A DNA stretch of 64,000 nt from an uncultured Gammaproteobacteria bacterium (GTDB lineage Bacteria; Patescibacteriota; Patescibacteriia; Magasanikbacterales; UBA922). A program made the translations under genes and the position numbers. Each line of letters starts with the position of its first letter. The stretch's first letter is position 1. The stretch covers positions 345,236-409,235 of the forward strand of contig CAYMVY010000001.1 of the NCBI GenBank assembly GCA_964394405.1, read 5' to 3'. Below the pieces are notes generated by a model. The model saw nothing but the letters and a program-made list of their open reading frames with translations. It searched no databases and was not told the DNA's origin. Shown piece by piece: positions 2,943 through 42,622 of this stretch.

Positions 2943-2980
2943 AGTAATAATTTAGTCGGTTGAAGGGTTTATTGGTAAGC

Positions 2981-3076
2981 CCAAAACTCAAAGTTCAAAA
3001 CGTAAAACTATAACCAAAAACTCAAAAGTTTTGACATTTGAGATACGGTTTTGACATTTGAGTTTTGAGTTTTGCA
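2981..3076. repeat. AT-rich palindromic intergenic repeat (AAACTCAAAAC family), copy 1
   Basis: ccaaaactcaaagttcaaaacgtaaaactataaccaaaaactcaaaag / ttttgacatttgagatacggttttgacatttgagttttgagttttg: an imperfect long inverted repeat. Related copies are at 13614-13740, 18444-18560 and 42448-42575. Confidence 0.6.
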
Positions 3077-3550
3077 TTTATATACATAACTTCAAGATAG
3101 TATTGTACCATATTTTCACCCTAATACGGAGCTCATACTGGGGTATAGCATAGGAAATGTGTATAAATTTGGCTAAATTAAGGGAACTGTGGATAATTAT
3201 GGGGATAGATAGGGATGAATAGGGGATAAATATAGACTATTTTTATCTTTTTTTAGCCAAAATATGGACTTTCTTGACAAAAAATGAACCCTAGTCTCTC
3301 ATTTGACAATACCATAGAAAAAGAGTATTCTAACGGCATTGTGTTCAAAGGAAAAAAGACAAATAATTCTGGTCTTCTCGCACCTATCTCAAGGGCAGGC
3401 GAATTATCCGGATATCCCATGCCTCGATTCCATATCTACAATTAAATTGTAATTACCTCCTTTTTAATAAAAGGGATTTTTTGTTGTCTTAACTTATCCT
3501 GTGCATCCATTTGGGAATGGAGTGTGCAGTTAATCAATAGTATACAGCGT

Positions 3551-13592: not shown

Positions 13593-13613
13593 GTGTGCTA
13601 TAATAGATTTGAT

Positions 13614-13740
13614 AAACTCAAAACTCAAATGTCAAAACGCAAAACTATAACTCAAAACTCGAATCTTTCGAGACCTCTGTTGAAATAGGTTTTAAGATTT
13701 AAGTTGATAGTTTTGAACTTTGAGTTTTAAGTTTTGAGAT
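13614..13740. repeat. AT-rich palindromic intergenic repeat (AAACTCAAAAC family), copy 2
   Basis: aaactcaaaactcaaatgtcaaaacgcaaaactataactcaaaactcgaatc ... ttaagatttaagttgatagttttgaactttgagttttaagttttgagat. The arms are approximate reverse complements. Confidence 0.6.
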
Positions 13741-13749
13741 AACATATAT

Positions 13750-14736: not shown

Positions 14737-14740
14737 AACA

Positions 14741-14830
14741 AAGTAAAAAATAAAAAGGAAAAAGGCAAAAGAAAATACAAATTATTTCGAATTTCTTTTT
14801 ACTTTTTACCTTTTTCTTTTGACTTTCAAA
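14741..14830. repeat. AT-rich inverted repeat of the AAAGTAAAAAG family, between gap and pgk
   Basis: aagtaaaaaataaaaaggaaaaaggcaaaagaaaa ... ttctttttactttttacctttttcttttgactttc, arms reverse-complementary. The same motif is found at 16118-16150, 52489-52560 and 56781-56812, and in frame inside valS. Confidence 0.55.
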
Positions 14831-16029: not shown

Positions 16030-16152
16030 TTTCAACGTATATATCCACAGACGAGTAACGAATAAAAAGTTATTTTGTGCTATACTTCCCTCATTGAATG
16101 AATTTTGAAATTATCTTTTTACTTTTGCCTTTTTAATTTTTACTTTGCACGT

Positions 16153-17150: not shown

Positions 17151-18425
<1,275 letters not shown>

Positions 18426-18443
18426 TATTATATTTTATATAAC

Positions 18444-18560
18444 TGAAAACTTAAATGTCAAAACTTAAAACTATAACTAAAAATTTAAAACTAGTTATTG
18501 AATTTAAAGTTTTTAGATTTAAGTTGCGGTTTTGACTTTTGAGTTTTACGTTTTGAGTCC
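18444..18560. repeat. AT-rich palindromic intergenic repeat (AAACTCAAAAC family), copy 3
   Basis: aaaacttaaatgtcaaaacttaaaactataactaaaaatttaaaac ... aaagtttttagatttaagttgcggttttgacttttgagttttacgttttgag. Confidence 0.55.
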
Positions 18561-18567
18561 GAATACT

Positions 18568-20142
18568 ATGTCTAAAACACAAAAACAACCTAAACAAATA
18601 CCATCCCCTACAGTCCTCATTATTCTCGATGGATTTGGTCTGGCTCCTGAGAAAAACGAAGGGAATGCGATTACCTCAAAAACCGCGCCGAATATTTTTG
18701 GGTATCTAAAAAAATATCCAAATTCAAAACTCAAAACTTCTGGTGAGCAGGTGGGACTGTTTCCCGGACAGATTGGAAATTCTGAGGCAGGACATTTGAA
18801 TATTGGAGCAGGAAGAATTGTAAAACAGGATTTGGTCTGCATTTCAGATTCAATCCATGATGGGACGTTTTTTAAAAATGAAGCATTCAAGCAGGCGCTC
18901 TTCCATGTAAAAAAATATAATTCCGCTGTTCATCTCATGGGACTTCTGACAGATGGGAATAGTGCCCACTCATATCCTGAACATGTCTACGCATTGCTTG
19001 AACTCTGCCGGAGAGAAGGAATTGACCGAGTGTATCTGCATCTATTTACTGATGGTCGTGACTCGGGCCCCCATGCAGCGGCTACATATTTGCATGAACT
19101 TCGTGGTCACATGCTCCATACTGAAAAAATTGCGACTATCATGGGTAGACTGTATGGCATGGATCGAAATAAAATATGGAGTCGTACTGAAGCCGCATAT
19201 GAAGCTATGGTCATGGGTATAGGGCACAAAGTAGCGAGCGCGGAAGAAGCTCTAGAGCAGGCGTATAATCGGGGAGAGACAGATGAATTTGTCACTCCAT
19301 CAGTCATGGTAGATGACAAGGGCAAACCGATTGCGTCAATCAATGACCATGATACTGTTATATTTTTCAATGCGCGGTCTGATCGTGCTCGTCAGATCAC
19401 CAAAGCATTTGTGCAAGATGACTTTAATAAACGGAATCCTGGGTCGTTCAAAAGAGTTAAAGTGCCCAAAAATATCAGATTTGTGGCGCTTACTGATTTT
19501 GGACCGGATCTTGAGCGAATACTCACCGTATTTCCTTCACCTGATGTGTACAATACCTTGCCTTTGGCACTTTCAAATTTTACACAAGTGTATATTGCAG
19601 AATCTGAGAAGTATGCACATGTTACCTATTTTATCAACGGTGGTTATGCTGAACCAGTCAATGGCGAAGATTGGATTAAAATAGAATCAAAGACAGTGGC
19701 TCATCATGATACCAAGCCAGAAATGGCAGCAAAAGAAATTACCAAAAAGGTTGTGGGACTGATGAAGAAAGACGCCTATCAGTTTTACTGTATCAATTAT
19801 GCGAATGCTGATATGGTAGGGCATACAGGCAACCTCAAAGCTGCAAAAACAGCAGTTACGACGATTGATACCTGTGTCGGAGAGATTGTTGATACGACCC
19901 TTGCAAAAGGTGGACAGGTGCTGATTGTCTCGGATCATGGTAATGCGGAAGAAATGAAAAATTTGAAAACAGGAGAAGTGGATACTGAACATAATCTGAA
20001 TCCTGTTCCCTGCATATTGATTCGCAATATAGTCAAGGGAATAAAATTGAAAGATGGTATTCTCGCAGATGTGGCGCCGACGATTATTAAAATGGTAGAA
20101 GGCAGGCAGCCACGAGAGATGACAGGTAAACCTTTATTTTAA
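18568..20142 (+). CDS. gpmI: 2,3-bisphosphoglycerate-independent phosphoglycerate mutase (iPGM), paralogue 1
   Basis: ILDGFG, GNSEAGHLNIGAGR (catalytic Ser), YANADMVGHTG and SDHGNAEE motifs. The track ORF begins 36 nt earlier at an upstream ATG. Confidence 0.9.
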   Translation: MSKTQKQPKQIPSPTVLIILDGFGLAPEKNEGNAITSKTAPNIFGYLKKYPNSKLKTSGEQVGLFPGQIGNSEAGHLNIGAGRIVKQDLVCISDSIHDGTFFKNEAFKQALFHVKKYNSAVHLMGLLTDGNSAHSYPEHVYALLELCRREGIDRVYLHLFTDGRDSGPHAAATYLHELRGHMLHTEKIATIMGRLYGMDRNKIWSRTEAAYEAMVMGIGHKVASAEEALEQAYNRGETDEFVTPSVMVDDKGKPIASINDHDTVIFFNARSDRARQITKAFVQDDFNKRNPGSFKRVKVPKNIRFVALTDFGPDLERILTVFPSPDVYNTLPLALSNFTQVYIAESEKYAHVTYFINGGYAEPVNGEDWIKIESKTVAHHDTKPEMAAKEITKKVVGLMKKDAYQFYCINYANADMVGHTGNLKAAKTAVTTIDTCVGEIVDTTLAKGGQVLIVSDHGNAEEMKNLKTGEVDTEHNLNPVPCILIRNIVKGIKLKDGILADVAPTIIKMVEGRQPREMTGKPLF

Positions 20143-20145
20143 TGT

Positions 20146-21723
20146 ATGTCACGACCAAAACCAGTAGTACTTGCTATACTTGATGGATGGGGAGTCGCAC
20201 CAGCAAGCGACGGGAATGCGATTGAGCGAGCCCTGACGCCGAACATGGATCGTTTTGTACGCGAATACCCAGCCATGACACTCTATGCTTCGGGGAATGA
20301 AGTAGGTTTGTCATACGGAGAAATGGGGAATTCAGAAGTAGGACATTTGAATATCGGTGCTGGTCGCGTATATTATCAGACCTTTCCTCGGATCAATAAA
20401 ACTATTGTTGATGGAACATTTTCTCAAAACAAGGCATTTTTGAGTGCAGTAGAACATGTTCGTGAACATAAATCGAGTCTGCATCTGGTAGGCCTGGTGA
20501 GTCCGGGAAACGTACATGCGAGCCAGGACCATCTCTATGCGTTGCTAGAATTTGCCAAGAAAAATAAAATTAAGAATGTGTTTGTACATGCGATTCTTGA
20601 TGGAAGAGACACGCTGTATAATAGTGGCAAAGATTTTATTGGAAAACTAGAAGAGAAGATGAAAAAGATTGGAGTGGGTGAAATTGCGTCGTTGTCGGGG
20701 CGTTATTATGCAATGGACCGTGATAATCGATGGGATCGAATCGAGCGCGCATATCGAGCGATGGCTGAAGGAGTTTCTGAGACATATCACAAAGATCCTC
20801 GTGAAGCACTCGATATATCATATGAAAAAAAAGTATATGATGAAGAATTCATACCAGTCGTGATTGGAAAAGAAGGGAAGCCCACTGCTCGGATTGAATC
20901 AGGAGACGCGGTGATCTTTTTTAATTTCCGCCCTGACCGTGCCAGACAACTCACCAAAGCATTTGTATTGCCTGGATTTGATAAATTCAAGCGTGAATAT
21001 CTGAAAGATTTGCTTTTTGTAACTATGACTGAATATGAAAAAGAAATTCCCGTCGTAGTCGCATATCCTCCAGTCGTCGTGCATAATTGTCTTGCAGAAG
21101 TAGTGAGTAAAGCGGGGCTCACCCAATTCCACGTGGCAGAAACAGAAAAATACGCGCATATTACGTTCTTTTTGAACGGCACAGTCGAAGAACCTTTTGA
21201 AGGGGAAGAGCGTGCAATTGTACCTTCTCCAAATGTATCTTCGTATGATAAGGCACCAGAAATGTCGGCTGCAGAAGTTACCAAGAAAGTAATTCATGCA
21301 ATTGAATCAGACGCATATGACGTGATTCTGGTAAATTATGCGAATGCTGATATGGTGGGACATACCGGAGATCGTGACGCCACGATTACTGCATGTGAGG
21401 CAGTAGACAAAGGGCTGGGTAAAATTGCTGAATATGTAGAAGCAAAAGGTGGGGTGCTTCTTATCACTGCTGATCATGGAAATGCTGAGGAAGTGGTGAA
21501 TTTGAAGACCGGTGAAAAAGACAAGGAGCATAGTAATAACCCAGTACCACTACTTATTATTGGGAAAGAATTCAGAGGACACGCAGGTCCGGGCGGTGAC
21601 GCTCCTGAGGGTGACTTGAGTCTGGTGCATCCTGTCGGAATTCTTGCTGATGTAGCGCCGACTGTATTAAAAATTCTTGGACTTGAGCAACCGCCGGAGA
21701 TGACGGGGAGATCGTTGATATAA
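20146..21723 (+). CDS. gpmI: 2,3-bisphosphoglycerate-independent phosphoglycerate mutase (iPGM), paralogue 2
   Basis: ILDGWG, GNSEVGHLNIGAGR, YANADMVGHTG and ADHGNAEE. It starts 4 nt after paralogue 1. The two proteins share the catalytic motifs but are otherwise divergent. Confidence 0.9.
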   Translation: MSRPKPVVLAILDGWGVAPASDGNAIERALTPNMDRFVREYPAMTLYASGNEVGLSYGEMGNSEVGHLNIGAGRVYYQTFPRINKTIVDGTFSQNKAFLSAVEHVREHKSSLHLVGLVSPGNVHASQDHLYALLEFAKKNKIKNVFVHAILDGRDTLYNSGKDFIGKLEEKMKKIGVGEIASLSGRYYAMDRDNRWDRIERAYRAMAEGVSETYHKDPREALDISYEKKVYDEEFIPVVIGKEGKPTARIESGDAVIFFNFRPDRARQLTKAFVLPGFDKFKREYLKDLLFVTMTEYEKEIPVVVAYPPVVVHNCLAEVVSKAGLTQFHVAETEKYAHITFFLNGTVEEPFEGEERAIVPSPNVSSYDKAPEMSAAEVTKKVIHAIESDAYDVILVNYANADMVGHTGDRDATITACEAVDKGLGKIAEYVEAKGGVLLITADHGNAEEVVNLKTGEKDKEHSNNPVPLLIIGKEFRGHAGPGGDAPEGDLSLVHPVGILADVAPTVLKILGLEQPPEMTGRSLI

Positions 21724-21724
21724 G

Positions 21725-21815
21725 TTCAAATCTTAAACTTTAAAAAAGACATCCATGTAGGATAGTCTTTTTTATTCATTTGAAATTTTGATTTTGAAAT
21801 TAGTGATTTTGAGTT
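21725..21815. repeat. partial, degenerate copy of the AT-rich palindromic repeat plus a terminator-like hairpin between convergent gpmI and the NrnA-like gene
   Basis: aaaaagacatccatgtaggatagtctttttt hairpin, then tttgaaattttgattttgaaattagtgattttgag. Confidence 0.35.
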
Positions 21816-23008: not shown

Positions 23009-23122
23009 CAGTGCGGTTTTTGAGACTTTTTGCGTGGTGCAAAGCCCATAATTGAGCCAGATTTAGCCTAATTCTTGCTAAATATAGAAGAGTACGATAG
23101 AATTTTAGGTATACTGAACTTT

Positions 23123-26100
23123 ATGAAAGAACGAGAACTGCCCAAAGCTTACGAACCGCATATATACGAGGATAAGATCTATACACGCTGGGAAAAAGGC
23201 GGTTTTTTTGCGCCTGAGAGCATTCCAGGGTGGGTCAAGGACGATACGAAGAGAGAGTCTTTTAGTATGGTATTACCTCCTCCAAATGTGACTGGAACCC
23301 TCCATATGGGTCATGCGGTCATGCTCGCAGTACAGGATGTGATGGCGCGCTATCATCGGATGAAGGGTGACAAAACCCTCTGGATTCCAGGAACCGATCA
23401 TGCCGCAGTCGCAACTGAGTCAAAAGTAGAAAAAATGTTGATTGAAGGCGGAATGAAAAAACCAAAAGCAGAGCTGGGGCGTGAAAAATTTTTGAAACAC
23501 GTGGAAAAATTTGCGAGTGAATCGCATGACACTATTGTGAACCAAGCAAAAAAAATGGGGGCGTCCCTCGATTGGTCTCGTGAAGCATTTACTCTCGATA
23601 AAGCACGAAATACTGCAGTAAATACCTTATTCAAAATGATGTACGATGACGGGCTTATTTATCGAGGATACCGAGTAATCAATTGGTCAGTCAAAGGGCA
23701 ATCCACCTGCAGTGATGATGAATTGGTCTATGTCGAGCGACCAGGGAAATTATATTATTTCACATACGGACCAGAATGTCCGATTACGATTGCGACAACG
23801 AGACCAGAAACTAAGCTCGGGGATACGGCAATTGCAGTGAATCCAAAAGGAAAATGGAAAAAATATATTGGAAAAACTTTTGTTATAAAAAACTTCGGTC
23901 AAACCGGACATGTTTTAAATTTGAAAGTAATTGCAGATGCGGGAGTTGATGACACATTTGGTACCGGAGCTCTCGGGGTCACTCCGGCGCATAGCCAGAC
24001 TGATTTTGAAATCTATCAGAAGAATAAAGATATTGGTTTGATTCAGGTAATTGGCGAGGACGGGAACATGACTGGTAATGCTGGAAAAGCATATGCAGGT
24101 TTAACAGTTGAAGAAGCCCGAAAGAAAGTAGTTGCGTGGTTGGAAAAGCAAAAACTGCTTGAGAAAACTGAAGATACGATGCAGAATGTGGGAACCAGTG
24201 ATCGCTTCGGTGATGTTGTAGAACCATTACCAAAAACTCAATGGTTTATTGAGGTGAATAAAAAAGTAAAAAGTAAAAACGCAAAAGTAAAAAGTTTTGA
24301 GGGTAATTTGAGTTTGAAAGAGCGGATGCAGCGAGCAGTTCGTGATGGTCATATAAAAATTATCCCTGAGCGATTTGATAAAACCTATTTTCATTGGATT
24401 GATAATTTACGTGACTGGAATATTAGTCGACAGATTTGGTATGGACATCAGATTCCGGTGTGGTACTGCAGAGAAAGTAAAAAGGAAAAAGGTAAAAGTA
24501 AAAACTGTGGCGAAATGTTTGTGTTAACAGAAAAACTTACCCAGTGTCCGAATTGTGGAGGTAGTGTTGAACAAGATTCAGACACACTCGACACGTGGTT
24601 TTCTTCAGGTTCGTGGACATTCTCTACACTTGGTTGGCCCACGACTGAAGTTCAGTTTATTCGTCACGGTGAGGCAGAAAATAGTGTAGAGAAAATAGTA
24701 AGTGATATTAATGATCGAAATGTATACAACCTCACGAAAAAAGGCGAAAAACAAATTCAAGAGTTGGCAAAAATAATGAAAAATAAACCAGAAGTTATTA
24801 TTACTTCCCCAATCGCTCGAGCGAAAGAAACTGCTGAGATTTTGAGTAAGAAATTAGGGAGTACTCTTGTTGAAGATGCACGAATTCGAGAAGTCGGAGT
24901 GGGGGAGTTCAATAGTAAAAGTGAAGATGAATTCGATGAATTCCGTGCAGGCAACAACTGGATGAAGAGTAATCCAAAAGGGATTGAGTCTTATGTTTCA
25001 ATGCGTAAGCGCACCCATGAATTCATGGCAGAAATTCTTGAAAAATATCGAGGTAAACGGATTGCAATTGTTTCGCATGGTGACCCGATTGAAGTTATGA
25101 AGCAATTCGGTACTGAAGTCTATACCAATGAATGGGATATCCAGGATCGGGGCACTCTCGAAACCCGAATGTTTGGCTCTGATAATAAGCAGAATGATGA
25201 TCTTGAAGTATTTCATCCCACCTCAGTTCTTGAAACCGGTTATGATATTCTCTTCTTCTGGGTTGCGCGCATGATTCTCATGAGCACCTACGCACTTGGT
25301 GAAGTACCATTCAAGACCGTCTATCTTCATGGTCTGGTACGTGATGAAGAAGGGAGAAAAATGAGCAAGTCTCTCGGGAACATTATTGATCCTCTCGACA
25401 TGATCAAGAAATATGGAACTGATGCAACCAGACTTTCACTTCTCATTGGCGGAACACCGGGGAATGATATGCGATTGTCAGAAGAAAAGATCGCAGGCTT
25501 TAGAAATTTTACGAATAAACTATGGAATATTAGCCGATTCATGTTGTTAAATATTGAAAAGCCAGTAAGAGATATCAAACAACCTAAGGCAAAAACAGCG
25601 GCAGATGAATGGATTTTGTGGAAATTAAACGAAGTTGTATCAAAAATGAATACATCATTTGATGCATATCAATTCTCAATTGCTGGTGAAACATTGCGTG
25701 ATTTTACCTGGGGAGAGCTTGCTGACTGGTATCTGGAAATTGCAAAAGTGGAAGGTGAGAAGAGTGAGATACTAAATTATATTTTGAATACCATTCTCAA
25801 ACTTTGGCATCCCTTCATGCCCTTTGTCACTGAACAAATATGGCAGGAAATATATGGTGGAACAATGCTTATAGTAGAAGAGTATCCAACAATAGAAAAA
25901 AGCAAGAAAAAGACAAGTGATGTAGTGTTTGTTGATACAACCCTTCGAAATATTATCACCAAGATTCGTTCAATTCGCACTGAATACAAGATCGAGCCAG
26001 CAAAGAAAATAATAGTGAGCATGAAAATGAAAGGCACAAACACATTACTCAAAGAATATTCGCCAGTGTTGATTCGATTGGCAGGGCTCGAAACTATTAC

Positions 26101-26377
26101 ACATGAAAAGATTGAAAAAGCTGTTTCATTTATTGAATCTGGAATAGAGGTAGACATAGATTTGAGCAGTGCAATCGATACGAAGAAAGAAAAAATACGA
26201 ATCGAAAAAGAGATCGCGAGTGTTGAACCATATGTAATACAACTTGAGAAAAAATTAGCAAACAAAGAGTTTGTAAAAAATGCGCCAAAAGCAGTGGTTG
26301 AGATTGAAAAAAAGAAGCTAGAAGAAGCGCGGCAGAAACTAGAGTCATTGAATGGGCAGTTAAAACAACTAACCTAG
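23123..26377 (+). CDS. valS: valine--tRNA ligase with an inserted histidine-phosphatase-like domain
   Basis: Class I HIGH region (PPPNVTGTLHMGHA), CP1 editing domain (TTRPET, GTGALGVTPAHSQTDFE), KMSKS, and C-terminal coiled coil. An in-frame insertion of about 184 aa at nt 24645-25195 carries FIRHGEAEN ... IAIVSHGDPI. Two Lys-rich micro-insertions are also present. The track ORF starts at a TTG at 23075. The ATG at 23123 (MKERELPKAYEP...) matches ValRS N-termini. Confidence 0.9.
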   Translation: MKERELPKAYEPHIYEDKIYTRWEKGGFFAPESIPGWVKDDTKRESFSMVLPPPNVTGTLHMGHAVMLAVQDVMARYHRMKGDKTLWIPGTDHAAVATESKVEKMLIEGGMKKPKAELGREKFLKHVEKFASESHDTIVNQAKKMGASLDWSREAFTLDKARNTAVNTLFKMMYDDGLIYRGYRVINWSVKGQSTCSDDELVYVERPGKLYYFTYGPECPITIATTRPETKLGDTAIAVNPKGKWKKYIGKTFVIKNFGQTGHVLNLKVIADAGVDDTFGTGALGVTPAHSQTDFEIYQKNKDIGLIQVIGEDGNMTGNAGKAYAGLTVEEARKKVVAWLEKQKLLEKTEDTMQNVGTSDRFGDVVEPLPKTQWFIEVNKKVKSKNAKVKSFEGNLSLKERMQRAVRDGHIKIIPERFDKTYFHWIDNLRDWNISRQIWYGHQIPVWYCRESKKEKGKSKNCGEMFVLTEKLTQCPNCGGSVEQDSDTLDTWFSSGSWTFSTLGWPTTEVQFIRHGEAENSVEKIVSDINDRNVYNLTKKGEKQIQELAKIMKNKPEVIITSPIARAKETAEILSKKLGSTLVEDARIREVGVGEFNSKSEDEFDEFRAGNNWMKSNPKGIESYVSMRKRTHEFMAEILEKYRGKRIAIVSHGDPIEVMKQFGTEVYTNEWDIQDRGTLETRMFGSDNKQNDDLEVFHPTSVLETGYDILFFWVARMILMSTYALGEVPFKTVYLHGLVRDEEGRKMSKSLGNIIDPLDMIKKYGTDATRLSLLIGGTPGNDMRLSEEKIAGFRNFTNKLWNISRFMLLNIEKPVRDIKQPKAKTAADEWILWKLNEVVSKMNTSFDAYQFSIAGETLRDFTWGELADWYLEIAKVEGEKSEILNYILNTILKLWHPFMPFVTEQIWQEIYGGTMLIVEEYPTIEKSKKKTSDVVFVDTTLRNIITKIRSIRTEYKIEPAKKIIVSMKMKGTNTLLKEYSPVLIRLAGLETITHEKIEKAVSFIESGIEVDIDLSSAIDTKKEKIRIEKEIASVEPYVIQLEKKLANKEFVKNAPKAVVEIEKKKLEEARQKLESLNGQLKQLT

Positions 26378-39532: not shown

Positions 39533-39978
39533 TGTTTCGTATTACTTGAGATGATCGTCTTATCCTCCGATTCGGAGAGTAGGAAGGAAAGTCCGAACTT
39601 CCCCCGACGTTACGTCGGGGAAAAAGGTAGTGGGTAACACCCACCCCCCGATCCGTGAGGTATTGGGGCGGGAAAGTGCCACAGAGACTATACTACCCTG
39701 CACCAGAAACGGTACAGGGGAAACGTGAAAAGTGTGCTGATGTGTTGATCGGTTCAGCAATTGCGCTTGATCAATGCTACGGTACTAGTCCTATTGTGAA
39801 ATAGGATGTTGGTAAACCCTACCTGAAGAAAGAGCAGCGTTTCCCGACTCAGTCGGGATTCGAAAAGTTAGCTCGTTTTGATCTCACTGGCAACAGTGGG
39901 GCTAGAGAAATGATCATTACTCCCGACGTAACGTCGGGGGATACAGAATTCGGCTTATGAGAGTAGTGCGAAACAAAA
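39533..39978 (+). ncRNA. rnpB: RNase P RNA (bacterial type), with extra hairpin insertions
   Basis: Universal P4 segments GGAAGGAAAGTCCGAAC and ACAGAATTCGGCTTAT, GGTAGTGGGTAACACCCACC (the GGUAAC P5-P7 region), GGGAAACG and GGTAAACCCTACC. The P1 pairing is tgtttcg...cgaaaca. It is followed by the atctgtacc-agaaa-tggtgcagattttttt terminator at 39981-40011. Confidence 0.75.
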
Positions 39979-42189: not shown

Positions 42190-42271
42190 TGCTCAGGAGA
42201 GGACTCGAACCTCCATGCCTTTCGGCGCTACCACCTCAAGGTAGTGCGTCTACCAATTTCGCCACCTGAGC
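42190..42271 (-). tRNA. tRNA-Leu (anticodon GAG), type II with long variable arm
   Basis: The minus-strand sequence gctcaggtggcgaaattggtagacgcactaccttgaggtggtagcgccgaaaggcatggaggttcgagtcctctcctgagca folds as a cloverleaf. The anticodon loop ttGAGgt gives anticodon GAG. The T-loop is ttcgagt. CCA is not encoded. Confidence 0.85.
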
Positions 42272-42299
42272 ATATTTTGTCCAAAGATCATTTTTTCTA

Positions 42300-42385
42300 A
42301 ATCTCAGGCGAGTGCGTCCCATGTACCACAAGAGTACATGGCCGTGAACCTTTTTGGTTCGCGGTATCAATTTCGCCACCTGAGC
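42300..42385 (-). pseudogene. tRNA-Leu-like 5' fragment (duplicated acceptor/D-arm without a T-arm); not a functional tRNA
   Basis: The minus strand reads gctcaggtggcgaaattgataccgc..., identical to the first about 18 nt of the adjacent tRNA-Leu. It is followed by two unrelated hairpins (gaacc-aaaaa-ggttc and ccatgtac-tcttgtg-gtacatgg). No T-arm or acceptor 3' strand is present. Confidence 0.4.
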
Positions 42386-42447
42386 ATTTATTTGCTTACA
42401 TAGAATGCCATACATTTTGAGCTTAGTCAAGGGTTTGTAAATGCAAT

Positions 42448-42575
42448 AAACTCAAAACGTAAAACTCAAAAGTCAAAACTAGAACTTAAATCTTAAAACT
42501 TTTACCTTGTATTAGTTTTGAATTTTTAGTTACAGTTTTTAGCTTTGAGATTTGAGTTTTAAGTTGTACTATAGT
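42448..42575. repeat. AT-rich palindromic intergenic repeat (AAACTCAAAAC family), copy 4
   Basis: aaactcaaaacgtaaaactcaaaagtcaaaactagaacttaaatcttaaaac ... agtttttagctttgagatttgagttttaagttg. Confidence 0.55.
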
Positions 42576-42622
42576 TTGCTTAGACACTTAATTTTTGCTA
42601 CACTGTACACATATTTTACTTT

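Follow-up and report, generated by a model that had tools for sequence, protein, structure and literature searches.

An apparently undescribed family of intergenic foldback repeats built from 7-nt units in a Candidatus Magasanikbacteria genome

Introduction

In Proteobacteria, REP doublets (REPINs) form hairpins and are mobilised by RAYT Y1 transposases. The ERIC/IRU elements of enterobacteria are 127-bp imperfect palindromes in transcribed intergenic regions, and repeats of the Correia/RUP type are miniature inverted-repeat transposable elements (MITEs). The STRR heptamers of cyanobacteria make up arrays of 7-nt units. Comparable intergenic direct repeats of the heptamer TAACTGA, in 2-6 (up to 43) near-perfect units, have been described from Beggiatoaceae, Cyanobacteria, and Bacteroidetes (MacGregor 2015, PMC4679880). 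Here we describe a family of palindromic repeats, four copies of which lie in a 64,000-nt stretch of a Candidatus Magasanikbacteria genome (contig CAYMVY010000001.1 of assembly GCA_964394405.1; this whole stretch is "the window" below). The family apparently has not been described before: searches of Rfam and string and keyword searches of the literature found no description of it. We read it, with a probability of roughly 0.45, as a non-coding foldback repeat that is dispersed in the manner of REP/REPIN/MITE elements, is confined to Patescibacteria in the sample covered, and travels in mRNA leaders and spacers.

With the REP/REPIN families the element shares short imperfect palindromes that are non-coding, multi-copy and placed at many extragenic sites, and inverted doublets that make a foldback hairpin of ~100 nt without target-site duplication. 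It also shares lineage-specific sub-families, persistent orthologous copies and, we infer, co-transcription with neighbouring genes. It differs in that its arms are arrays of 7-nt units, whereas a REP is a single 20-35-nt palindrome; it has no conserved 5′ GTAG-type tetranucleotide, and no RAYT gene flanked by the element was found. REP families are species- or genus-specific, whereas this family spans several candidate phyla. Its size of 90-130 bp, its imperfect palindromes, its place in transcribed spacers near stop and start codons, and its presence and absence between relatives recall the ERIC/IRU and Correia/RUP elements. Unlike ERIC and Correia, it has an internal heptad periodicity, no TA or other target duplication, and no known insertion sequence (IS) partner. 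From the direct tandem arrays of TAACTGA and STRR it differs in consisting of two degenerate inverted arrays in fixed order, with defined variable positions; it has head-to-tail 7-nt units near start codons as they do, but not a near-perfect single direct unit. The likeness to the TAACTGA arrays extends to a similar word (TAACTGA versus AAACTCA), an intergenic location that ends a few nucleotides before start codons, few Shine-Dalgarno sites, downstream genes without a functional pattern, and a patchy phylogeny (PMC4679880).

Identification and architecture of the family

The four palindromes of the window are true members of one 90-130 bp intergenic repeat family built from 7-base units. The word AAACTCAAAAC, at no more than one mismatch, occurs 21 times in the window, against an expectation of 2.6 ± 1.5. 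Eighteen positions are invariant in all eight window arms and give a 36-position two-arm pattern (AAAACNNAAANNTCAAANNNNAAAAC-N36-66-GTTTTNNNNTTTGANNTTTNNGTTTT, 36 specified bases), whose only matches in the window are the four copies; 100 shuffles yield none. An arm profile made from 78 arms has exactly eight matches in the window, two per copy, with E = 1e-8 to 4e-12. Folding of both strands of the copies beats that of shuffled sequences (z = -3.5 to -5.9), with -27.7 and -27.9 kcal/mol on the two strands of copy 1 (z = -4.7 and -4.9) and -36.6 (+) and -39.3 (-) kcal/mol for copy 2.

A sequence-only reading of the window had listed four full copies and two partial ones. The pattern and the profile bear out the full copies, with refined extents, and their gene contexts had been named correctly (FtsK/RpoB, RuvC/GAPDH, enolase/iPGM, and tRNA-Leu/Bac_transf sugar transferase). 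The partial copies are not members, since the arm profile scores them at chance level (E = 12 at 473-485 and E = 15 at 21723-21736): At 445-500, related T-rich heptads form a single arm ahead of a start codon on the minus strand, and 21724-21799 is a canonical GC-stem bidirectional terminator whose short flanks are heptad-like. That reading had also asked whether low-complexity AT-rich composition might account for the similarity; such an explanation fails the shuffling controls, and the family is clearly real. The tandem-heptamer make-up of the arms was absent from it.

A copy starts with an array of 7-8 A-rich heptads (consensus AAAACTC) and, across a centre that varies, continues into the inverted T-rich array. 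TRF assigns the window arms a period of 7, with 6.7-7.8 degenerate units per arm (65-75% matches). The arm consensus of the profile, nAAAACTCAAAACTCAAAnnTCAAAACTCAAAACTACAACTnAAAACTnAAAA, reads by units (T)AAACTC AAAACTC AAAnnTC AAAnnTC AAAACYR YAACTn AAAACTn AAAA. Heptads 1 and 4 have the form AAAAC-TC, and heptads 2 and 3 the form AAA-nn-TC with a hypervariable dinucleotide; the phase is then broken by one 6-nt unit (YRYAAC), which is followed by two or three more heptads. The length of the centre ranges from none, in 92-nt copies, to ~30 nt, and in some copies the centre is itself a GC-rich hairpin. Such an apical hairpin is present in the copies of L086, L090, L091, and L122 (L numbers are our labels for the sequences compared), and terminal expansions of 7 and 14 nt are seen in the copies of L082 and L091. 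The copies align equally well forward and reverse-complemented. The A-rich arm precedes the T-rich arm in 43 out of 43 adjacent arm pairs, ~11 of which were found without this order being imposed.

Conservation of the heptad word

We compared the outer 36 positions of both arms in 36 distinct copies with 500 shuffles in which the arms were re-dealt among the copies. The arms pair in 80.0% of cells, against 81.5 ± 0.6% after shuffling, and 499 of the 500 shuffles pair at least as well. The covariation score is likewise lower in the real copies (0.085) than in the shuffles (0.097). A separate permutation test agreed. The variable dinucleotides of heptads 2 and 3 avoid complementarity, with 10 complementary cases against 27.2 ± 4.1 expected and 19 against 29.5 ± 3.8, respectively. 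Arms that lack covariation and avoid complementarity argue that what is conserved is the heptad word in its register and spacing, not a helix or its pairing, and that the helix is kept imperfect.

Nothing in the predicted RNA favours one strand: RNA of the sense strand is no stabler than antisense RNA (n = 23, P = 0.38), and G.U pairs number 46 against 62 A.C. At the Rfam gathering threshold the whole window matches only tRNAs and RNase P, and copy 2, searched at E ≤ 10, has only sub-threshold matches to miRNA precursors. We therefore disfavour a structured RNA family, given covariation below that of the shuffles, complementarity avoided at defined positions, and no Rfam match at threshold. 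A:U pairs predominate in the stems, which have fixed mismatches and no U-tract beyond their base; in a terminator scan, the only part of the copies picked out is a small hairpin at the apex of copy 2, on its minus strand. Ordinary GC-stem terminators occur elsewhere in the window, and the copy in L093 has a canonical terminator as its neighbour. An intrinsic bidirectional terminator fits poorly as well, since the copies lack a GC-rich stem with a U-tract and are placed after predicted -10 boxes (copies 1-3) or inside an operon rather than at the 3′ ends of transcription units.

Distribution and genomic context

The two-arm pattern is present in 43 metagenome contigs from many environments, with a contig GC content of 27-61%, in a single scan that imposed the order A-rich arm first. 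The taxon labels of these contigs rest on few flanking proteins: Exact flanking proteins label some of them Falkowbacteria, Jacksonbacteria, and Uhrbacteria, and one contig of 56% GC groups with Paceibacterota/Parcubacteria. Beside another copy lies an RpoC gene whose product is 56% identical to the RpoC of the window. Copies can be dense, with six in ~10 kb of L128/L129, where they occupy nearly every spacer of the pil operon; the syntenic operons of other Parcubacteria (L125-L127 and L131; spacers of 5-110 nt) have none. The element is also absent from 80 enolase loci of Magasanikbacteria relatives (1.34 Mb). The two-arm pattern has no match in viral contigs. Phage records gave no match, and plasmid records a single one, to a one-armed cyanobacterial array.

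That match, on plasmid pA of Kovacikia minuta (L134 385-455; NZ_CP083583.1), is a one-armed (GTTTTGA)x10 array between two genes, and its word is that of the T-rich arm. The array shows the same word in use outside Patescibacteria. At L123 6281-6320, a single A-rich arm of the family is read in frame as part of a peptidase-C39-like open reading frame (ORF) and encodes ...SNSKVKTQKSKL...; the orthologue in L102 is unrelated at this place.

Copies fill the spacers they occupy: The median distance is ~10 nt from the preceding stop codon and ~12 nt from the following ATG. Between the end of the T-rich arm and the start codon lie 3-20 nt, and several copies have a terminal TAA that doubles as the stop codon of the upstream gene. 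Most copies lie between co-directional genes, although convergent (L086, L093) and divergent contexts occur too. The flanking genes are unrelated housekeeping genes, for example, for PilB, a beta-CASP RNase, QueA, YceG, UvrD, RNR, a TraG-like ATPase, and DnaJ; we found no association of the flanks with a gene family or function, and hence no regulon. The polarity of arm sub-types relative to gene direction is inconsistent between lineages.

Turnover among relatives

Turnover among close relatives is fast: Copies come and go, shrink to a single arm, or give way to different heptad palindromes. The eno/gpmI spacer, filled by copy 3 in the window, measures only 7-10 nt in L003 and L004; in L006 it holds a one-armed array of TTTGAAT units, and in L021 it holds (GAAATTA)x11. 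At ruvC/gap, L005 keeps only the outer T-rich arm, the 104-nt difference being bounded by the 10-nt direct repeat ATAGNTTTGA, as expected for a slippage deletion; the repeat bounds no more than part of the element, which fits a deletion and not the target duplication of a MITE. Other palindromes occupy the ruvC/gap leader in L002, L006, and L007. Between gap and pgk the window has a two-armed palindrome (AAAAAGG/CCTTTTT) and L005 its A-rich arm only. In L130, whose PilB is 88% identical to that of L129, other heptad palindromes stand at the family sites of L129, one of them with the T-rich arm first. An empty-site comparison of L101 with L132/L133 (a relative of at least 90%) found the whole upstream region to differ.

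Predicted promoters and leaders

The putative promoters of the window resemble extended -10 boxes (TGnTAYAMT), many of them no more than 19-32 nt away from the ATG, and a Shine-Dalgarno-like motif precedes only one out of 31 start codons; the upstream regions are T/A-rich. Copy 2 begins ~8 nt after the predicted box TGTGCTATAAT, so that its first base coincides with the predicted transcription start (~13611), and this -10 box is kept at ruvC/gap in the relative L005. Copies 1-3 are thus predicted to form 5′ leaders between a -10 box and a start codon without a Shine-Dalgarno sequence. Copy 4 is not in the leader of the sugar-transferase gene, because the predicted -10 box of that gene lies downstream of it (Table 1).

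Predicted -10 boxes are also found upstream of the pilB copies in L129 and L130. Some copies are intra-operonic: In the pil operon they stand between all genes, with no -10 boxes in between. Since copies follow -10 boxes or lie inside operons, they are probably transcribed. The sequence-only reading had placed the elements at operon boundaries, which holds in part only: Their sites are 5′ leaders and intercistronic spacers. There is no general enrichment of -10 boxes upstream of copies (14/25 versus 10/25 on the control side, not significant). Outward promoters within the arms were considered and rejected: TTGAC(A) is present in the T-rich arm, but no -10 box lies at 16-18 nt.

Table 1. Copies of the repeat family, predicted promoter motifs, and other heptad arrays in the window
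Feature	Position	Strand	Description
Copy 1	2975-3081		A-rich arm 2977-3030, T-rich arm 3026-3079, hardly any loop; between divergent ftsK (-) and rpoB (+)
Copy 2	13611-13741		A-rich arm 13614-13665, centre 13666-13687, T-rich arm 13688-13741; fills ruvC-gap spacer, 9 nt from its end to gap ATG (13750)
Copy 3	18438-18560		Arms 18440-18492 and 18507-18558; fills eno-gpmI spacer, ~9 nt from its end to gpmI ATG (18568)
Copy 4	42446-42567		Arms 42448-42501 and 42514-42565; between tRNA-Leu (-) and sugar-transferase gene (+), 5′ of that gene's predicted -10 box
Predicted extended -10 box TATGGTACAAT	3102-3112	-	Faces ftsK; copy 1 lies between box and ftsK ATG (2942); motif only
Predicted extended -10 box TGTGCTATAAT	13594-13604	+	Directly 3′ of ruvC stop; motif only
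Predicted -35/-10-like pair TGGAGA-18-TATAAT	18397-18426	+	Overlaps eno stop; 10/12 matches; copy 3 starts ~12 nt later
Predicted extended -10 box TGCTACACT	42596-42604	+	19 nt before sugar-transferase ATG, downstream of copy 4
Distinct heptad palindrome	14740-14826		gap-pgk spacer; AAAAAGG-type arm, then CCTTTTT-type arm; not of the AAAACTC family
One-armed T-rich array CTTTTTA x4.6	16110-16147	+	Between predicted -10 box TGCTATACT (16078-16086) and ATG of SIMPL-domain gene; non-member

Three observations were made beside individual copies. The public Logan contig SRR12404947_58900 (L001), the only one found with an identical gap gene, starts 40 nt 5′ of gap, inside copy 2. Copy 3 precedes only the first of two tandem paralogous genes for cofactor-independent phosphoglycerate mutase (18568-20142 and 20146-21723). 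Beside copy 4, the 5′ end of tRNA-Leu(GAG) has an exact 18-nt duplicate (42256-42273 and 42370-42387), 114 nt from the gene, which looks like an integration (att) scar.

Other heptad arrays and repeats in the window

Heptad arrays are not confined to the family. Among tandem repeats of at least three units in L001-L124 and the window, 316 of ~590 arrays have a period of 7, and they lie mostly in spacers or 5′ leaders. Their units vary, for example, AAAAAGT, GAAATTA (x11, L021), GAGTAAA (x9, L077), and TAATTTT (x13, L010). The distinct palindrome of the gap-pgk spacer folds with -19.2 kcal/mol (z = -4.1). The one-armed array before the SIMPL-domain gene, present in L005 and L010 too, is unstructured (-1.7 kcal/mol).

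Heptad-like arrays also occur within coding sequence. The valyl-tRNA synthetase ORF (23075-26377) has two, at 24261-24295 and 24474-24504, which encode Lys-rich loops (KKVKSKNAKVKS and KKEKGKSKN). The same ORF has a His_Phos_1 domain inserted at amino acids 528-675, between the halves of the catalytic domain, and an identical gene on a public Logan contig is recorded with the same His_Phos_1 architecture.

Two further repeats are of other kinds. Six units of ~380 nt lie at 52857-56493, each with a 43-nt terminal palindrome (CCTTCTCTCT...AGAGAGAAGG) and an ORF of 100-115 amino acids that has no Pfam match; a transposase gene with an IS116/IS110/IS902 domain (54061-55470, minus strand) interrupts this array. 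The palindrome CCCCCGACGTTACGTCGGGGG occurs twice within the RNase P RNA gene (39590-39624 and 39909-39943) and once more 13 kb away (52804-52838), just 5′ of the ~380-nt repeat array.

Discussion

The copies are dispersed, non-coding, multi-copy, patchy in distribution, and unrelated in function to the genes that flank them. Of the three roles that the sequence-only reading had offered (bidirectional terminator, promoter-embedded operator, or MITE/REP-like element), the last fits best. On the explanation that we favour, copies would arise and vanish at the DNA level, by slippage, foldback duplication, or deletion within the heptad arrays, and a heptad-recognising enzyme may assist their gain and loss. 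From sites after -10 boxes or within operons they would enter mRNAs, as part of leaders or of intercistronic spacers, and a transcribed copy would form a long, deliberately weak A:U hairpin with fixed 2x2 mismatches, which the host would tolerate. Such a hairpin may have modest effects on processing, on the protection of 5′ ends, or on initiation without a Shine-Dalgarno sequence at the U-rich arm by the start codon. The avoided complementarity may best be read as selection for a harmless palindrome of 45-50 bp, one that would cause no termination, RNase III-type cleavage, or cruciform instability; selection for harmlessness would be the simplest account of the enforced mismatches.

Several observations weigh against a REP/REPIN/MITE-like repeat. 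We infer that the element is mobile, but found no target-site duplication at the copy ends (in L129/L103 and the window), no autonomous partner in the form of an arm pair enclosing a gene in ~0.4 Mb of element-bearing loci, and no matching transposase. The IS110-family gene of the window (54061-55470) is not flanked by element arms. The only Y1_Tnp gene seen is IS200-like (L129 1145-1834) and is flanked by a different hairpin, TTTGGACATCCGATGTCCAAA; its absence from the otherwise collinear L128 marks an insertion polymorphism unrelated to the heptad element. Orthologous copies are, furthermore, better conserved than a neutral repeat should be: Those of L094 and L123 are identical at 91 of 92 positions, in contrast to flanking proteins that are only 64%-78% identical, and L111/L112 are similar. 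Copies of one genome have a similarity of 0.80, against a between-genome mean of 0.755, and the four window copies range from 0.73 to 0.83; window copies that are no more alike than copies of different phyla suggest constraint rather than a recent burst. The fixed A-rich-first order, found also in the unrelated heptad palindromes of the window, hints at a functional rule that a selfish model would not predict.

The chief alternative is a host regulatory platform read by a heptad-binding protein, which we regard as doubtful overall. Acting on RNA, an OB-fold protein (of the cold-shock-protein or S1-like kind) might occupy each U-rich heptad, with the A-rich arm as a masking competitor, and the result would be a switch, titratable by chaperone or temperature, for Shine-Dalgarno-less translation or antitermination; acting on DNA, dimers of the ribbon-helix-helix type might polymerise on the convergent 7-bp units. 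A protein reader would account for a heptad word and phase that are kept without a pairing constraint, for a strictly convergent heptad order and a motif conserved across phyla, and for T-rich arms placed so close to start codons in a genome where a Shine-Dalgarno motif is so rare. It would suit the strong conservation of orthologous copies relative to flanking genes, and the abundance of one-armed heptad arrays, U- or A-rich, that this genome and its relatives have between a -10 box and an ATG. CspB of Bacillus subtilis binds to repeated heptamers, one molecule on each, with a preference for TTCTTTT, which by analogy makes cold-shock proteins a candidate (PMC4679880). However, the family is absent from close relatives with the same genes and promoters and so is dispensable; its copies are also found where genes converge (L086, L093), ahead of promoters (copy 4, L101), and in frame within an ORF (L123), and their genes have no functional coherence. 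The DNA version meets with no overlap with promoter hexamers, and the earlier suggestion of promoter-embedded operators is likewise unfit for copies that follow -10 boxes or lie inside operons. A bolder form, in which heptad arrays would be a Patescibacteria-wide cis-code for Shine-Dalgarno-less mRNAs, bound by Csp- or S1-like proteins and with mismatches that tune the switch point, strikes us as improbable. The origin of the arrays is the subject of another reading, that they are by-products of heptanucleotide microsatellites, grown in place by slippage from A- and T-tracts and by foldback duplication, with neither mobility nor function, and with the AAAACTC type as the commonest attractor. 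The dominance of period 7 among tandem repeats, the many unit sequences that share these spacers in relatives, the terminal 7- and 14-nt expansions (L082, L091), the one-armed forms, and the cyanobacterial (GTTTTGA)x10 array are all in its favour. We nevertheless think it unlikely, because independent growth would not recreate one architecture in several candidate phyla at 27%-61% GC; in that architecture a 6-nt unit at AAAACYRYAAC breaks the phase between the first four heptads and the two or three that follow, and the same positions vary. Degenerate units in place of perfect tandem copies and the non-random avoidance of complementarity are further points against it.

The arm order is also what one would expect of a bidirectional intrinsic terminator or a leader attenuator, in which the U4 runs of the 3′ arm would be serial release sites: Either strand reads from an A-rich arm into a T-rich one. 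The GC-rich apical hairpins of L086, L090, L091, and L122 agree with this, as do the heptad flanks that embrace the canonical terminator at 21724-21799 and the two copies between convergent genes. Yet the stems are A:U-rich with obligatory mismatches and have no U-tract after their base, a predicted -10 box precedes three of the window's four copies, the pil-operon copies stand between genes of one operon, the genome of the window has ordinary GC-stem terminators, a canonical one adjoins the copy in L093, and no sense-strand bias is seen. We consider a role in termination, which the sequence-only reading had proposed, poorly supported and improbable. A structured RNA, whether cis-regulatory (a riboswitch-like leader, for example) or the product of an sRNA gene, would agree with hairpins that are significantly stabler than shuffles and with the several copies in predicted 5′ leaders; with no covariation, both strands folding equally, no Rfam match at threshold, and contexts and orientations that vary, we give it very little credence.

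Three known systems that invite comparison were considered and rejected. The omega (ribbon-helix-helix) repressor of pSM19035-type plasmids binds heptads, WATCACW, that overlap the promoters of a few plasmid genes. Like its operators, the element has contiguous 7-bp units in direct and convergent order, which suggests one protein dimer per heptad; unlike them, it is found at dozens of chromosomal sites, after promoters or inside operons. A heptad operator of this type was set aside because the arrays lie downstream of -10 boxes or within operons and no adjacent small regulator gene recurs among the flanks. In integrons, attC sites with RYYYAAC / GTTRRRY cores bound cassettes that lack promoters and lie beside an integrase; the element has terminal heptads, (T)AAACTC / GAGTTT(A), that do not fit such cores, and it is flanked by core housekeeping genes. 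TIGR arrays have 36-nt units with two 8-10-nt spacers, box C/D-like repeats, and an adjacent Nop-domain Tas gene (PMC12045711). The element has a period of 7, varies at 2-nt positions only, and occurs as single loci dispersed among housekeeping genes.

A non-coding element of 90-130 bp that is common to several candidate phyla is unexpected in the tiny, streamlined genomes of Patescibacteria. It appears to break short-read assemblies, as where the Logan contig starts in copy 2, and it supplies upstream stop codons. Gene control in these bacteria is little understood, and in some genomes the element fills nearly every spacer of one operon. Conservation of the motif without covariation, together with enforced mismatches, makes the proposal that a protein reads the heptads directly testable; if true, the logic of a titratable switch would also explain the TAACTGA/STRR arrays of cyanobacteria, Bacteroidetes, and Beggiatoaceae, in which few Shine-Dalgarno sites are reported. 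The family offers a handle on the over-represented 7-nt intergenic repeats of lineages that seldom use Shine-Dalgarno sequences, and on what replaces Shine-Dalgarno initiation and classical attenuation in these bacteria.

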